Shown here piece after piece: positions 5,313-14,223 of a DNA stretch of 64,000 nt. The stretch is from Eremomyces bilateralis CBS 781.70 (Eukaryota). The position numbers were made by a program, and so were the translations under genes. Numbering within the stretch: position 1 is the stretch's first letter; each line of letters starts with the position of its first letter. A model generated the notes under the pieces. It saw only the letters and a program-made list of their open reading frames with translations, was not told the DNA's origin and searched no databases. The stretch lies in assembly GCA_010015585.1 (NCBI GenBank), contig ML975156.1. One strand, written 5' to 3'.

Positions 5313-6404
5313 GGGAGGGTGGGTGGCCTGGGCTGGGGTTTTACAGAATGGGTCATAGGATGCGTATGAAACACAGCTGGATATTGTTTCATTGCCGCTA
5401 GGGATACGGAATATACAGTATGGGGTTGGCTCAGCCCTCGTTCGATGTCACTGAATGATTTATGCTTAGAGAGCTGGACTTGCGAAGACGTGCCCATTCC
5501 GCAAGACCTAGGAGGTAACGCAATAAAACCTTCCCAGCCGCTTTGAATACCTTCAGCCTTGAATCTTGCTATTAGGAATCTCCGAATCTCCATGAGTCCA
5601 TGTTTAATCACCATACATAGTATGTACCTGTGCAAGGGTCCGATGGTGGCTGCGGACGCAACCGAGCTTAACCAACACGAGGAAGCTTGTTTAAGCCTGA
5701 AATAAGGGGCAACCGAAGTATTACAAACAAACATCCCCGCAACTGCAGATCGGTTTGTTTTGATTCTTCTACTATGGTCATCCTCTTACTCTTCAACCTA
5801 TCCCAAGGCCTCCAGAACATCTTGATACCCGTGTGATACCCAAGGAATGGTGGCACAGTGGCATCTCATTTTCCCCTTCTACGTATCAGGACATGCAAGA
5901 GAGTGATACAAGCACCGGCTCACCACCGACTCACCACCGATCTCCAGTCTTGCAGCCTTGTACAGACGTCGCCCCCACGGACAACATCTCAATTCTCAAC
6001 GAGACAACAATTCACTTGCCGCTCTGGGTTTAACTGCAATTACCACGATAGTGGATGGCAGGGGTTCCCCATCGACAGCGTGATCCCAGCCTTGCACAGT
6101 GATCTTCCACCGTTGATATTGCAGGGTTGGAAAGAGTGGTACCGTAGCTATATGAACTCGCGTCGATCGTTCTTACTTTGACCTCACCTCAACTGCGCTG
6201 CTTCAATTCTGCTTCGTCGTCGAAGCCTGCGCTGCTCGAGTCATATTAGTTACATCCCATGCGGTCGTCTTCACATGTGACGCTGTGACTTCTTTGGCAT
6301 TGGTTTCCGGTCTATATTGAATAACCTCTATATCGGTCGTTACTGCAGCGCTCAAGCGGTATTTCACCAGCGGAAGAAAGTCATTCGTTCTGTTCACCGG
6401 CGCG

Positions 6405-9121
6405 ATGGAGTCGTTTAAAGAAACGCCGCTAAAAGGCTCAAGGAGCGAGGAAAAAATACCCTTCTTGGATATCGAGGAAACGGAGCAAGATATGGACCAC
6501 GAACGCAGGATTCGCGAAAGTCAATCGAGGACTCGAAGCCTCGTGAAGCTGATAGTCTACATGGGGCTTCTCCTTGGACTGGTAGCGGCTTATAGTTGCC
6601 TAAGTCGACATATCAGCTTCGGGTTAGGTACGCGCAACAGGAACAGGACGGCTAGCCTTCTGCTTTCCGAGGTTTCTAATGTCGAGATAGCGCCTCCCGT
6701 ACCCGTATCAAGGCTCGAAGCGCACGATATCTCTGTGCAGTCTACGCTGGAGAGGAGGCGGGTTATACCTCTGGTTGATCAATCACGCCCAGAGTCTGGT
6801 CCGAATGAGACGTCGGTTTGCGAAACGGAGGCGTGCAAGGCTGCAGCTGCGGAGATTCTAACCAATATGGCTTCGAACTATACGGTGATGGATCCATGCA
6901 CGGAGTTCAACGCAATGGTTTGCACCGGGTTCGTAGCACGCACTACCTTATGCATTGCGATAGACTAACTCGGCGTAGTTGGGAGGCTACTCATGATTAC
7001 CGGCCGGAACAGTCTAGTAAGTCCCTGCTAGTATATTACCTGCGCTAAACTAACATGATACAGCCATTGGAACCCTCTCTGATATGGACGACAAACTGCA
7101 GGAGGTGCTCCACACCATCCTTGAGTCACCCTATACGTCCAATTCGATCCCACCAGGCACAGACCCTGCGGTTGACAAAGCCAACTTTGACAAGATGCAA
7201 AGTGCTTACCATGCCTGCTCTGACGAGGAGACCATTCGGTCGTTCGGCATCAAGCCGCTCACAGATATCTTAGATAGCTTTGAGGAGGTCTTCCCACTTG
7301 ATGGACCTGAGACCGTGGGAAAGGATGAACTGACCAAAGCAATCTTGAATCTGTCCGGGAAAGGCGTGGGAGCCCTGGTGGGCGCCGGTCCATCTGTATG
7401 TTTGCAATACAATCGTATTTCACCCAGCTAACGAAACACAGGCCGATGATAAGGAGCCCGATGTCATGGCCGTATATCTGTCTCCTGGCAGCGTCGGACT
7501 TCCGTCGAAAGAGTATTACAACATCTCCGATGTCGTGGAGAAATATAAAACCGCCATCACCGCCATGTTCGAAACCATGTACGGAAACTCGACTGGTCCC
7601 GCGGCCCCCTCAGGCTATCGAAACCGTCAAGCCGCCGGGTTTGCAGACTTAGCGAAGAAGATCTCGGATTTCGAGGGTTCACTTGATGTCCTTACAGCTG
7701 ACCCGGCTGATGCTGCCGATGTAACGAAATATTACAACCCCATGACGCTTGCGGAAGTCGATGCCTGGATTCCCTCCATCTGCATTACGGATATTGTGAG
7801 GGGCCAGGTTCCGAAGAACTTCACCTCTGACCGAGTCATCAACACTGACCCGGCCTACTACAAGAATGCATCTGCAATCATTGCCAGCACTCCCAGAGAG
7901 GTCCTCCATGGTTACTTTATATGGGGAATCATACGGCGTTGGTCTGGACGCTTGCACAAGGATTTCAATAAGCCATGGCGGCAATTCAACAATGTCCTAG
8001 CCGGGCGCGATCCAGACGCCATTGCCGATCGGTGGAGAACATGTGTAGCAGAAGTGGATGGAAATCTAGGCTGGCTTGAGAGTGGAGTATATGTGCAACG
8101 TGAATTTGGTCCAGACCAGAAGGCATTTGGTGACCGTATCATCGCCGATATCAGGTCTCAGTTCAATACCAAGTTGATTGGCTTGGACTGGATGTCTGAA
8201 GATGTCAAGAAGGTTGCCCAAGAGAAAGGTGAGCTGAATATGCAAGGGATTATTCCCACTGAGACTGGTTTCACTGATAATTATCCAGTTCGCAACATTG
8301 TCCAGAAGATCGGATACCCCACCAAGTCCCCCAACGTTCTGGACCCGCAAGACTTGTCGGACTACTATTCTGGACTATCTATCAGCAATGAGACGTACTT
8401 TGCCAATGGCGTGGCCTTTTCCAAGTTTGGCGATGCGAAGGAGTGGATCCGCCTCCTTGAACCCACTGACAAGGACCGCTGGTACATGACCGTCCCCACC
8501 GTAAACGCCTACTACAACCCCCCCGGCAACGAGATCGTCTTCCCCGCCGGCATCATGCAATACCCCGTCTTCCAACTCGGCCTCCCCGAATACGTCTCCT
8601 ACGGCTCCTTCGGCGCTGTTGCCGGCCACGAACTCTCTCACGGCTTCGATAACTCCGGCCGCAACTACGACGTCAACGGCACCTACACCGACTGGTGGGA
8701 CAACAGCACCGTGACGGCCTTTGAGCAGCGCGCCAACTGCTTCGTCCAGCAATACGGAAACTTCACCGTCCCCGGCCTCGACAACCAGCCGCTGCATGTC
8801 AACGGCGATCTCACCCTCGGCGAAAACATCGCTGACGCAGGCGGTGTCTCCGCCGCGTACGGCGCGTGGTCACTGCGAGAGTTCACGCAGCCGAACCAGC
8901 TGCTGCCTGGGCTGGAACGGTTCTCGAAGGAGCAAATGTTCTTCATTAGCTTCGGGACGACGTGGTGTGGGAAGGTGAGGAAGGAGACGGCGGTTAATCG
9001 GGTGTACACGGATCCGCATAGCCCGCCGCAATACCGCATTTTGGGCACTCTTGCGAATTCTCGGCCGTTCAAGGAGGCATTTAATTGTCCTGTCAAGGAG
9101 CCGACTTGTGAGCTGTGGTAG
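6405..9121 (+). CDS. M13 family zinc metalloendopeptidase (neprilysin/endothelin-converting-enzyme-like), type II membrane anchor
   Basis: N-terminal TM segment, DPC, VNAYY, HELSH (HExxH), GENIAD, DPHSP, C-terminal CELW; several introns. Confidence 0.93.
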
Positions 9122-9320: not shown

Positions 9321-11554
9321 TTACTTTCCAACTATGATGCTTTCTTCAAATCGTCGAGTGATTTCCAAAACTTCGGAATCCATGCGGCTTCCACCCAAAA
9401 ACATGACTCCAAACGGTAGCATTCCCTCCTTGACATCTTCAAGCCTCAGTTCAGAGGCATGGAGCCTCCCTGAAGGCACTGAAATGCCGCATAAATCCAA
9501 GACATTTGCGCACTGTGTAAAAGTGCCATTGACGGTGTTCCGCTTAAGAGGCGACTCCTGAACCTGTTTGATCGTCCAATGTGTGGGCAATGTCGGGCAG
9601 ACGACCACGTCTACCCCTTCCGCAGCTTCCGCAAATACAATCTCTGCCGCCCGAGTCAACGCGGCCCTTTCTTGTAGATCTCGATAGGCATCTACGGCGG
9701 TTGACTTCCTCCCTTCCACAGCCCCAAACAGCTCCCGAATGGCAGGCTGCAGTACATCCGCATGTTTCGTGAAGAAATCATCGGGTAACGACGCCAACCG
9801 CTCACAAACAAACGAACCATCGTACAACAGCCGGCCAGCCTTCTCGAACGGCGACCAGTCAATCGGAGTTAAGATCCCTCCTATCTCCTGCATCCGCGCG
9901 ATCGCTATGTTGAACATCCGGCGATAAGGCGGCGAGCAGCACTCCAATGCTTCAAAAGGCGGAATCCCAAATTTGAATGTTTTGCTCGCTTTCCCTGTAC
10001 TATTGATATGGCGGGATACCGCGCGGGATTCAGGAAGTTTCGCGTACGGATCCTGTGGGTCATACTCCTCCAAAACATTCCAGATCGCCCGCGCATCCGT
10101 GACGGTCTGCGTGATCAGCGCGACACAGTCTAGCGACAGACACGCCGGCGTAATGCCGACGAAGGGAAGCAGTCCCCGCGTCGGCTTGTATCCGACGACG
10201 CCGTTCAGCGCAGCGGGCACGCGGCCAGACCCCGCGGTGTCGGTGGCGAGGCTGAAGGTGCAGAGCTGCGCGGCGACGGTGACGGCGGAGCCGGACGAGG
10301 AGCCGCCGGGGATGAAGTCCGAGTGGAAGGCACTGCTAGGGAGGCCGTAGGGGCTGCGGCAGCCGGTGAGGCCGGTGGCGAGTTGATCGAGGTTGACTTT
10401 TCCGAGGAAGAGGGCGCCGGATTCGAGGGCTTTGGTGTAGATTGGGGCAGAGATGGTGGGGGTGCGCGTGAGAGGGGGACATGCGGTGGTGGTCGGGAGA
10501 CCGGCGACGTCGATGCTGTCTTTCACGGTGAATGGGATGCCGAAGAGGGGAGGAAGTTTGCTGCGGTCGGGGAATCTGGTGATGCACAATTCTGCTGCTG
10601 CCAGGATATCGGATTTGGGGAGGAGATGGATCCAGGCACCAGGGTTGACTTTTTCGTAGGCTTCGATTTTCTGATAGAGGGCTTCGATGACGGCGACTGC
10701 TGGGAGCCCAGATCGGTACGCTGCCTGTAGACTTGCGAGACGTAAATCACCATCCCACTCTGGAATAGTCTTTAGGGGGCTTGGACCGCTGGAAGGTGTG
10801 GTGATAGAGAGAGGCTTGAGGACATCAAGGAGAGGCTGTAAGTTGGCCACAAATCCGAAAAGTCCTTGAGACCAATGCAACATATCTAGAGCCGAGATCT
10901 TGAAACCGGGGTTGTATCCATCGGTAGCTTCGAAAACAGCGCCTATTGTTCGTTAGCCATTCTTGTTAACAGTATACTAACATTCCGATGATACTCACAG
11001 CACTCAAAGCCTCTATCATTTGCTTCTCGATATGTTGTTGTCACGCAGCACTCTGTAGTCACACCTGCAATCAATAAATGTGTGATTCCGCGGGATTTTA
11101 GCCTGTACATGATCTGGGTATCCCAGAATGCCCCCTTTCCGGGTTTATCAATTATTACTTCTCCGGGCACAGGTTGGAGCTCATCCACGATGTCATGACC
11201 GTACTCGCCGCGGATAAGCAGCCTTCCCATCTTTCCTTTGTCGCCAATTCCGAGTTTGTATTGCGTATCAGGCGCTTCTGCTTGTCGAACTGTCTTATTT
11301 GAAGGCATGTCGGACATGTCTGGCCTCTGGCCTTCTCGAGTATGGAATACTGTCATTCCCGCATTTCGGCAAGCTGCGAGGAGTTTCCCGACAGGCTCAA
11401 TTGCAGCTTGGACGTCGGTTAGATCACCCCCTTCGATCTCACCGAAGCCATCTGGAAGCAGGAAGTCTCGTTGCATGTCAATGATGACCAGAGCCGTCTT
11501 CCTTAGTGGAAATGCGTAAGGGTATGGCTTCGCATCTACCGTGAGGAACTCCAT
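9321..11554 (-). CDS. Fusion of an isochorismatase-like cysteine hydrolase (TrtA/BiuH-like) and an allophanate-hydrolase-type amidase, ~725 aa
   Basis: Exon 11554-10999 has IDMQRDF, HTREG, IDKPGKGAF, GVTTECCV..REANDRG. A 56-nt intron 10998-10943 (GTGAGT..CTAAC..TAG) joins it in frame to exon 10942-9321, which has VKDSID, GKVNLDQLATGL, PGGSSSGS, TDTAGSGRVPA. Confidence 0.88.
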
Positions 11555-11623
11555 CTTATTGGGCACTGCGCAGTCGAAACGCATGAATAATAACCTGAAA
11601 ACAAATCGGATTCACGAGTAGGT

Positions 11624-12159
11624 TTATCTTCAGGTAATTCGACAGGGCCTGCCGTATTTAAAAGTAGCGGACGTTGCAATTGCGTCTTCGACCACCGGGT
11701 CCAGATAGGAGGAATCTGGTTAGGAGATCGTCACAAATTGCTCTCGATCCTTGAAATATCCCAAGGCAAACATTCCAATCTCCACGCCGTATCAGCTGTG
11801 CGGCACCCCGACGGCGGGCCTACCGGCGCGTCGGCGCCCGCTTATCGTGTTGCGAATGATCTTTGATACACATTTCAGGGATTTCCCCACAGTGGATGGT
11901 TTTAGGGCTTGTCCGAAACCGTACAACCATTTCAGCCTTCTTTTCACTCCTTCAATCACAAACGGTCGCAATTCTTGACGTTGTGATAGATGTGGTCTAG
12001 AACACGATCTTCGAGGGCTGGACCTGCAAGGCTGCAACGTGCTGTCCATATCTGCGATGCCGATATATCGGGCGGCATGGGGGCCGTGGAGATGGCACTG
12101 GGCGACAGGCTATCAAGGCATTCCCGTCGATCTATCTCTAATGCTGGGGTCGATTATCG
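11624..12159. promoter_or_regulatory. Cluster of HGATAR (AreA/Nit2-type) sites in the divergent promoter
   Basis: Seven HGATAR hits by eye at 11624, 11703, 11842, 11984, 12110, 12132, 12154. Confidence 0.5.
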
Positions 12160-12341
12160 TCGTGGTCGCGAAGGTGTATGTATCAACCAGATGATGTCCG
12201 TATTCATTCCCTATACTGTATGCTATCGCATTTCTACTCCGCAATTTCAAGTCAGAGTTGAAAGTATTCAGAAGTCAACGTCCTGGGTCTCAACTTAAAC
12301 CAACTTATTATATTCATTGTACCTTATGGTAGATCCACGCT

Positions 12342-14223
12342 ATGCGTCGGCCTTCATTACTGAGTGCATCAAGGCTAAGAGCCAAGATCGAGCCTCAGCT
12401 CCACAGGAGAGTACCATTTGAGCCTGGTATCTATGCCAACAGTCCACGATGGTCCAACAAAGACCTAGATCCCATTCCTCCAGAAGGGAGGACTTGGGGT
12501 GGGTTGGACTATTGGGCATATTGGACGTCCGATATGGTGAGTGAAGCTCTACTATAGTTATTATGATGAGCTGACCGTGTAGCTCGCTCCGCCGCTTGCA
12601 TCGACAGTGTCCAGTGTCATGGCATTAGGATTCACTGCTCGAGAGACCATTCCCATTGTCTTCTTTGGTTTCATGATCTGCTCCGGGGTCATTACCCTGA
12701 CCGGGAAGATGGGCGCTACATATAGTGTCCCCTTCCCTGTCATTGTTCGAAGCATCTTTGGCATGTACGGGTCTCTGCCGGCGATCTGCATTCGAGCATT
12801 TGTGGCTCTCATGTGGACTGCTATTTTGACCGTCCAAGCCGGTTCCTTCCTCCAGCGATGCATTGAGGCCATCTGGCCATCATTCATCGTTTTCCCGAAC
12901 CATTTACCAGAGAGCGCTGGAATTACTTGTAAGTATGCCGTCAACCGGAGCGTGAAATGAATCTGACACAAGGAAGCCGCTGGACTTCTCTCATTTTTCC
13001 TGTACTGGTTCATCCAGACAGGCCTCTCCCTCATGCCCATCAGGAAGCTCCGAATTCTTTTCCTGATCAAGGGTGTCGTTGTTCCCCCCACATTCCTTGC
13101 CCTCTTCCTCTGGGCTGCAATCGTGACGAAGGGCGGCGGTCCACTTGTCACCGGTCGCACTGAGCTCACATCTAGCTACATGAACACGGCGTACTCCGCG
13201 TTGACTGGACTTAATGCGATAATCGGCCTGTTCTCCTCAATGGCAGTGAACATGCCTGACTTTGGTCGGTACGTCACCCTTGCTCCGCTCTAGCCTTTCA
13301 CATACAAGGGGGTGAAACGGTCCAGCTCTGACAGGCTCATATAGATTCTCCAAGAACCGGCTAGCTGGTATTCACCAGTACTTCGCTCTTCCCATCATCG
13401 GAACCCTTGGTTCTCTCACACCCATTTTTGTCACTTCGGCGCACCAGTACATCTGGGGAGAATTTGAATGGTATATGCCAGCTGTCATTGCCAACTTCGA
13501 TTCCCGTGCCGCCAAATTTTTTGTCTCTGCGTCCTTTATCCTCGCTACCATCGGCAACCAGGTTGCGGCTGGTGAGTTTCATCCCAATGTTGCCTAGCAT
13601 AACATGAGATATTAACAGTGTATGCCACAGGTACATACCCCTTCTCCAACGACGTCAGCGGACTCTTCCCTCGTTACATCAATATCTTCCGCGCCACCCT
13701 TTTCATCTGCCTTTTCTGCGTGGTCTCCACGCCATGGAACATCATCAAAAATGCCGAGGGTCTTCTCGCTTTTTTATCCGGCTACTCCTGTCTCATGGGT
13801 CCTCTTGCTGGTGTTATGGTCTGCGACTACTACATCATCAAGAAAGGGAAACTTGATGTCCATGCTATGTACCAAGATAAGAGCATCTACTGGTACACGG
13901 GAGGCTTCAATTACCGTGCTTACATTGCATTCATCGTCGGCTTCGCGCCACTGATGCCGGGTTTCGCTAAGAGCATCGACCATGATCTCAATGTCGGCGG
14001 TGGCTGGAGGATATACTCCTTCGCATGGATCTTTGGGTTCACCTTTTCGTCTTTGGCCTACTATGTCATCTGCACGTGGATCTGGCCCCAGAAAGAGAGC
14101 TTGGTTGAAGAGGCAGTGCTTCCGCCGCAAATCGGAGACGTTACTCCGAGCATCGAGGGAGAGGCAGTTGAAGAGACTAAGGTCGAGTATACTGCTACGG
14201 AGAAGAATGTTAGTCCTGTTTAG
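12342..14223 (+). CDS. NCS1 family nucleobase/ureide permease (Fur4/Dal4-like); start approximate
   Basis: RWSNKDLDPIP..RTW, PFPVIVRSIFGMYG, NMPDFGR, PWN, GPLAGVMVCDYY, YWYTGGFNYRAY; multiple TM segments and introns. Confidence 0.9.

Follow-up and report, generated by a model that had tools for sequence, protein, structure and literature searches.

A widespread fungal fusion of a TrtA-type cysteine hydrolase and an allophanate-hydrolase-type amidase, a candidate two-step ureide-degrading enzyme

Do two adjacent minus-strand open reading frames (ORFs) in a 64,000-nucleotide stretch of the Eremomyces bilateralis CBS 781.70 genome (contig ML975156.1; hereafter the window) encode a single enzyme, and on which substrate would it act? 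One ORF, at 10946-11611, encodes an isochorismatase domain and the other, at 9321-10952, an amidase domain; the window is fungal and intron-bearing. An earlier note, made from the nucleotide sequence alone, had proposed that they join in frame through a canonical 56-nt intron into a hidden two-step ureide-cleaving enzyme, possibly with a substrate other than biuret or triuret. Our comparisons confirm the prediction of one spliced fusion gene, and a two-step ureide enzyme of this kind is a supported interpretation that fits all of the evidence.

Splicing out 10943-10998 yields a 2178-nt coding sequence with one stop, running from the ATG at 11554 (from which residues are numbered here) to the stop at 9321 and encoding 725 amino acids (aa), in which the junction sequence quoted in the earlier note is reproduced. 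The intron opens with a GTGAGT donor, contains a GCTAAC branch-type motif and closes at an AG acceptor. As 17 GT..AG pairs around the junction also leave the frame open, an open frame alone is little proof of this intron; it was picked from the 17 because of identity with a public gene model, completion of the protein fold, and same-position donors or read-through in relatives. Every residue of the spliced product recurs in the public model, P0001, which differs only by ten extra N-terminal residues from an in-frame upstream ATG at 11584; the gene was therefore less hidden than had been claimed. In PDB searches the match to TrtA reaches chain residue 215 with the spliced protein and only 181 with exon 1 alone, so that exon 2 completes the N-domain fold (the 47-residue start of exon 2 alone gave no PDB match). 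Furthermore, in four of the six fungal metagenome loci examined a phase-1 GT donor occupies the identical position, while the other two, which are near-identical copies, read straight through the junction in one open frame, as does a seventh fungal locus (L033). Contigs of run X1, which is not on record as RNA, cover the neighbouring permease gene and none covers the fusion gene, leaving them neutral on its splicing and expression. Although no read or contig shows the intron spliced, two separate genes or an unspliced artefact are very unlikely, given that a product of exon 1 alone would miss the final helices of the fold, that relatives lacking this intron run through the junction in one frame and that the public models are fused.

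The N-terminal domain belongs to the isochorismatase-like cysteine hydrolases (PF00857, 112.3 bits against a cut-off of 27), and its Asp-Lys-Cys triad, D26/K137/C170, is intact in all 54 full-length fusions described below. Its best PDB relative is TrtA (213 bits, E 5.5e-62), followed by BiuH (192-196 bits), and fungal N-domains share a mean identity of 51% with TrtA-type and 45% with BiuH-type domains. In a tree built by a quick method from 116 of the 168 domains (three quarters of the TrtA-type domains from loci were left out, groups are labelled by motif, and the characterised enzymes and GuuH are absent), the 30 fungal domains form one clade (SH-like approximate likelihood ratio test 100) inside the TrtA-type group (98) and apart from the BiuH-type group. 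The TrtA residues F35, E160 and Y187 are kept in 54/54 close fusions and, with A134, are present here as F37, E168, Y195 and A142. All of this agrees with the earlier view that the domain is nearer TrtA than BiuH.

Residue by residue, the domain resembles TrtA of Herbaspirillum sp. BH-1 (PDB 6XIX/6XJE; PMC7948467) in its triad and in F29, F35, E72, K132, A134, E160 and Y187, and shares its fold and triad with BiuH (PDB 6AZO; NF050097; PMC5806882). The pocket was compared across 30 fungal, 70 TrtA-type and 9 BiuH-type domains, with TrtA numbering and with residue roles taken from PMC7948467. D24, F29, K129, E160 and C162 are kept in 30/30 fungal domains, and E72 and K132 in 29/30. On these alignments, the distal part of the substrate pocket is rebuilt throughout the fungal clade. 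The position of L39, which is Leu in 70/70 TrtA-type domains, holds Gln (28/30) or Glu (2/30) in the fungi; Asn at N41 is found in none of the 30, compared with 70/70 TrtA-type domains; V161 is replaced by Cys, G203 by a polar residue and I205 by Leu, each in 30/30; and the protein in this window further has Trp for A201. The earlier note was correct that SQGLFG stands in place of QGG, and it is Ser that sits at the position of TrtA Gln202; the Gln of SQG falls at the G203 position, varies among fungal domains and is thus not the conserved Gln. The TrtA trio Q202/N41/I205 is accordingly S210, G43 and L213 here. At TrtA positions 35/41/160/187/205 the protein reads F/G/E/Y/L, compared with Tyr/Tyr/Asp/Thr/Val in the BiuH type, and it has Ser for BiuH Gln215. 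GuuH carries Glu at the Q202 position; the residue is Ser here and Glu in 0/30 fungal domains. The N-domain thus appears TrtA-like in fold and chemistry, yet its residues place it in neither the TrtA nor the BiuH family proper.

A dimer model of the N-domain scored 0.83 (best of three controls 0.00), with runs agreeing on at least 95% of contacts and a predicted local distance difference test (pLDDT) value of at least 92; the mark is reached by 20/30 solved pairs and 1/23 single chains (17/29 and 0/30 among eukaryotes). Lid residues 41-43 and the 209-215 loop both lie in the modelled interface, as the TrtA architecture requires. The TrtA and BiuH dimers being already solved, the model suggests likeness only. 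An exact and narrow pattern scan of species genomes for the fungal pocket (TECC) returned 13 loci and no domain in the fungal clade, a result that does not imply absence. A separate bacterial BiuH/TrtA-like branch (L104-L107 and L109-L116, from Acetobacter, Steroidobacteraceae and others) combines DKVGSG and TECC with R-[ND]-P-x-T-L-F-G replacing QGG.

The C-terminal domain is an amidase-signature enzyme (PF01425, 239.5 bits against a cut-off of 27) with the Ser-cisSer-Lys triad K326/S400/S424. Its closest sequences (best E 2.7e-96) and folds (Foldseek template modelling score 0.86-0.90 over the target; mean pLDDT 79.8 for the model) are allophanate hydrolases, namely 4CP8, 4GYR/4GYS and the allophanate hydrolase (AH) domain of K. 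lactis, as the earlier note had proposed. K326, S400, S424, Y559 and R567 are invariant in 54/54 full-length fusions. Y559 and R567 align with the LLY..ER motif of 4CP8, 4GYR and 4ISS, a Tyr/Arg pair that binds the substrate carboxylate in allophanate hydrolases. S424 corresponds in the alignment to S177, the K. lactis nucleophile that chain 4IST carries as S177A (PMC5770610). The triad and the Tyr/Arg pair are thus shared with AtzF-type enzymes (4CP8, 4GYR) and with the AH domain of Dur1,2 (4ISS, 5I8I), but the fusion differs from both in lacking the C-terminal AH_C domain, in having a cysteine hydrolase as its N-terminal partner and in carrying no urea carboxylase: the chain stops after the amidase. 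The absence of AH_C, also anticipated in the earlier note, extends to 54/54 full-length fusions, which have 0-20 residues after position 718; by contrast, 8 of the 11 AtzF-like frames from non-fungal loci continue for about 150 residues. Allophanate, malonamate and biuret are all substrates of AtzF, and the C-truncated AtzF467 matches the full-length enzyme in activity on biuret (PMC3944691), so the missing domain need not matter. In a tree of amidase domains (33 rows, built by a quick method without an outgroup) no single branch sets the fungal rows apart, and the tree is given no weight on the origin of the domain.

The amidase seems to be the more dispensable half. Among 16 aligned fusions, nine have a decayed amidase triad beside an intact N-domain triad: an Aspergillus californicus record, five named yeast records and three more, mostly early-branching yeasts. 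This pattern argues that the N-domain is the part under lasting selection. The decayed amidases (P0333, P0334, P0335, P0337, P0338, P0339, P0342, P0343 and P0345) are still 270-430 residues long, and the domain would be retained in this set as a pseudo-enzyme attached to a working hydrolase. According to a published table, DUR1,2 is present in 7/7 other Saccharomycetes (PMC3073912).

The fusion itself is real; that it is common in fungi and already present in gene models had escaped the earlier note. Exon 1 has 1031 longer relatives; motifs of both domains are present in 66 of the best 120, and 54 of these 66 are full-length fusions (at least 650 aa). The named carriers belong to the Dothideomycetes, Sordariomycetes, Eurotiomycetes, Lecanoromycetes and Geoglossomycetes. 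Searching cluster representatives with a profile brought in remoter fusions, in Geopyxis, Clonostachys, Aspergillus californicus and the basidiomycete Meredithblackwellia, as well as in the yeasts Dipodascopsis, Limtongia and Sugiyamaella.

A member of this fusion family already stands in a published tree. SNOG_08324 (P0469) is 64% identical to P0001 over 591 residues spanning both domains, and by its number it matches the Stagonospora amidase SNOT_08324, the 'stand-alone fungal amidase' (Fungi A) of Strope et al. 2011 (PMC3073912). In that paper it is treated as an amidase alone, and the word 'isochorismatase' is absent from the main text. Triuret genes have been said to occur in some fungi (PMC7948467), in a paper with no word starting 'fus' in its main text and no 'fusion' in its supplement text; the parts examined of PMC2409186, PMC12625717 and PMC7826186 do not describe the fusion. 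Literature searches by title and start of abstract found no paper on it; a 2018 biuret-hydrolase survey, a 2021 guanylurea-hydrolase paper and a thesis cited in PMC7948467 may mention it. The architecture is already in public gene models under generic names, and the ureide-hydrolase variant is new as far as the examined literature goes. Under either substrate discussed below, the finding corrects how the 'stand-alone fungal amidase' has been read, along with the many records that carry the label 'amidase signature enzyme', 'allophanate hydrolase' or 'GatA'.

Divergent from the fusion gene lies an NCS1-family permease gene (Table 1). Contigs of run X1 skip three of its introns, whereas the first intron of the gene (12537-12582) is a prediction only. 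This permease is likely to be the substrate importer. An NCS1 homologue lies upstream on the opposite strand in four of seven fungal loci (L026, L035 and the near-identical pair L030/L031); L024 and L025 offer only about 0.6 and 1.1 kb of upstream sequence. In bacteria, trtA, biuH and atzF form one operon (PMC7948467), a cytosine permease is present on some archaeal biuH contigs (PMC12625717), and we found an AtzF-like frame near a TrtA-type gene in 11 non-fungal metagenome loci. Three GATAA-type sites lie between the fusion and permease genes and are given no weight as evidence. L030 (3445-12181) and L031 hold a four-gene cluster of a fungal transcription factor, an NCS1 permease, a 2-oxoglutarate/Fe(II)-dependent (2OG-Fe(II)) dioxygenase and the fusion, which belongs there to the subclade retaining Gln202 (GQDGLFG). 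The dioxygenase may make the substrate. As a clue to its identity it was set aside, since its best PDB match, 9OVH, a structure cited in work that reconstructs ancestors of the ethylene-forming enzyme (PMC12329707), is not diagnostic; matches to the L030 dioxygenase in this genome lie outside the window. On the other side of the fusion, a peptidase M13 (neprilysin-like) gene at 6321-9121 on the plus strand converges on it, the stops lying about 200 nt apart; it is not beside the fusion in the fungal loci checked.

Table 1. Positions, in window coordinates, of the fusion gene's parts and of the divergent permease gene
Feature	Position	Strand	Description
Exon 1	10999..11554	-	Residues 1-185 plus one base of the TrtA-type isochorismatase-like cysteine hydrolase domain
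N-domain triad	D26 (11479), K137 (11146), C170 (11047)	-	Within exon 1, with lid residues E41/G43
Intron	10943..10998	-	56-nt phase-1 GT-AG intron with GCTAAC branch-type motif
Start of exon 2	10817..10942	-	Last strand and helices of the N-domain; Y195 (TrtA Y187); W-S-Q-G-L-F-G loop
S210	10871	-	In the W-S-Q-G-L-F-G loop; replaces TrtA Q202
Linker	10754..10816	-	Ser/Pro/Thr-rich, between the domains; low model confidence
Amidase-signature domain, AtzF type	9321..10753	-	K326, S400, S424, Y559, R567; stop directly after, no AH C-terminal domain
Intergenic region of fusion and permease genes	11585..12341	.	Putative promoter region
NCS1-family (PF02133) permease	12342..14223	+	550 aa, five-exon model, divergent from the fusion

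The rest of the genome bears on how many steps the fusion would have to perform. The searches score best candidates only, in an assembly that may be incomplete; within that scope, no second TrtA/BiuH-like gene was found, and hence no biuH partner of the kind that accompanies bacterial TrtA, nor was a second allophanate hydrolase, the next amidase standing at E 1e-29 and 33% identity. AH_C (PF21986) was likewise not found, with the control detected in 2/14, and cyanuric acid hydrolase (PF09663), a possible source of carboxybiuret, gave no match, a result that carries no information as its control was detected in 0/14. The genome has one urease and one DUF1989 locus, and its only CT_A_B locus, on another contig, is a stand-alone biotin carboxylase of urea-carboxylase architecture. 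At L022 (G000:C20:135000-144999) a LamB/YcsF gene, a copper amine oxidase and a stand-alone urea-carboxylase-like biotin enzyme are adjacent, which we take to be a lactam or amine utilisation cluster.

We favour, at about even confidence, a role of the fusion as a one-protein stand-in for bacterial TrtA, BiuH and AtzF, carrying triuret or biuret through allophanate to ammonia. The NCS1 permease would bring in the ureide, and the Asp26-Lys137-Cys170 domain, as a predicted TrtA-like dimer, would free the terminal amide nitrogen as ammonia via a thioester. Loss of the Gln202/Asn41 pair, which excludes biuret in TrtA, together with gain of a polar lid residue (Gln, here Glu41), would let the domain accept both biuret and triuret: triuret would give carboxybiuret, which would lose CO2 spontaneously to biuret, and biuret would give allophanate. 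The Ser-cisSer-Lys domain would then deaminate allophanate ahead of its decay to urea, and the resulting N-carboxycarbamate would break down with no need of the C-domain. As neither a BiuH-like gene nor a second allophanate hydrolase was found, the fusion would have to cover the biuret step itself, and by analogy either domain could do so: the TrtA Q202E variant gains tenfold in biuret activity (PMC7948467) and AtzF acts on biuret. BiuH yields allophanate, the substrate of the closest relatives of the fused amidase. Loss of the amidase triad in nine relatives is what would be expected if the N-domain product has another outlet; allophanate decays to urea (PMC6219798), a urease is present in this genome, and relatives with decayed amidases could rely on that decay with urease, or on Dur1,2. 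Triuret/biuret scavenging is the most economical reading: it explains the ancestry of the N-domain, why no biuH is found, why the selectivity pair was lost and why the amidase can be dispensed with.

Several observations weigh against it. TrtA Q202 is lost in 28/30 fungal domains (Ser here), the Gln being kept in 68/70 TrtA-type and 9/9 BiuH-type domains; this Gln binds the distal amide in both TrtA and BiuH, and in TrtA it is contributed by the partner subunit, held by N41, and sets triuret selectivity (PMC7948467). The variants Q202E and N41Y lose more than 95% and more than 90% of triuret activity, respectively (PMC7948467), and the BiuH Gln215Ala variant falls from 149,742 to 357 per M per s, a kcat/KM about 400-fold down (PMC5806882). 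Loss of the Gln thus cripples both known enzymes and would do so here unless the lid residue compensates, and such compensation is a guess; the lid residue at position 41 (window 11434) is itself Glu in this protein and Gln in 53/54 close fusions. The BiuH-type residues Tyr (N41), Asp (E160), Thr (Y187) and Val (I205) are all missing, and scores fall short for both BiuH (NF050097, 226.6 against a cut-off of 370) and AtzF (TIGR02713, 398 against 511, partly because the C-terminal domain is missing). Finally, locus L033 has 4.3 kb of upstream sequence and no NCS1 gene.

The main alternative, less probable, is that the same two-step chemistry serves another acyl-urea from nucleobase breakdown, bulkier or ending in a carboxylate, such as ureidomalonate, oxalurate or carboxybiuret. 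The N-domain would deaminate it, the N-carboxy product would lose CO2, and the amidase would cleave the resulting amide-acid (malonamate, oxamate or allophanate). The clade-wide replacements at L39, N41, V161 and G203 (30/30 each), with that at Q202 (28/30), would follow from a different ligand, the neighbouring permease is of a nucleobase/allantoin type, AtzF hydrolyses malonamate (PMC3944691), and the dioxygenase and transcription factor of L030/L031 suggest an oxidised ring compound upstream. That dioxygenase is not adjacent to the fusion in this window, however, no prokaryote was found that combines the fungal pocket with an informative operon (the 13 loci matched by the TECC pattern in genomes fall in other branches), and loss of the amidase triad in nine relatives is harder to explain if a stable amide builds up. 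It is possible, at a similar probability, that the fusion and its permease mark an undescribed fungal nitrogen-scavenging pathway for a ureide handled by no known enzyme. The N-domain would then be a fungus-specific TrtA offshoot with a remodelled specificity pocket, which gained the lid Gln/Glu and the Cys-Cys at the nucleophile and lost Gln202 and Asn41. Pezizomycotina, early-branching yeasts and a basidiomycete would all have preserved it, even beside a decayed amidase. Another acyl-urea would mean a new fungal catabolic route.

An improbable alternative retains strict triuret hydrolysis: TrtA chemistry would produce carboxybiuret, and the amidase would perform all later steps, taking biuret (or carboxybiuret) and then allophanate. 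Nesting of the N-domain in the TrtA-type group and conservation of F35, E160 and Y187 in the close fusions are in line with this, as is the acceptance of biuret by AtzF-type enzymes (PMC3944691), but the residues linked to triuret selectivity, Q202 and N41, are exactly those replaced, and relatives with a dead amidase would halt at biuret.

Still less probable is that the two domains are uncoupled, the amidase serving as a general allophanate hydrolase that works with a urea or guanidine carboxylase unlinked to it, and the N-domain having a separate job. The amidase is the only allophanate-hydrolase-type gene found in this genome, which also holds the stand-alone carboxylase and the DUF1989 gene elsewhere. 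The only such carboxylase, however, adjoins the LamB/YcsF and copper amine oxidase genes of the presumed lactam-utilisation cluster, and the fusion is conserved across Ascomycota and a basidiomycete. Amidase and urea carboxylase are unlinked in Dothideomycetes (Strope et al. 2011, PMC3073912), but the table of that paper lists the carboxylase and no amidase for three Aspergillus species, and the opposite for one Dothideomycete.

If triuret/biuret scavenging is correct, a single protein would let many soil, plant-associated and lichen fungi mineralise biuret and triuret, compounds that occur as impurities in fertiliser and as products of urate oxidation. The family would also be a natural experiment on how TrtA/BiuH specificity depends on the Gln202 network, a matter left open by PMC7948467. 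The conventional chemistry predicted for both domains and the existing public gene model limit the surprise.

Other ureide-pathway fusions also contain a TrtA-type domain. Algal and bacterial BiuH-TrtA tandems (for example P0009, P0010 and P0020) are alike in this respect, but they differ from the fungal protein in having two isochorismatase-like domains, an intact QGG and no amidase. In P0072 and P0323 PF21986 is fused to such a tandem, so that the domain missing from the fungal fusion joins cysteine hydrolases there. A BiuH/TrtA-type domain is also joined to an amino-acid-kinase-family, a polysaccharide-deacetylase or a ureidoglycolate-lyase domain (P0364, P0403 and P0410), partners that appear to point to purine/ureide catabolism.

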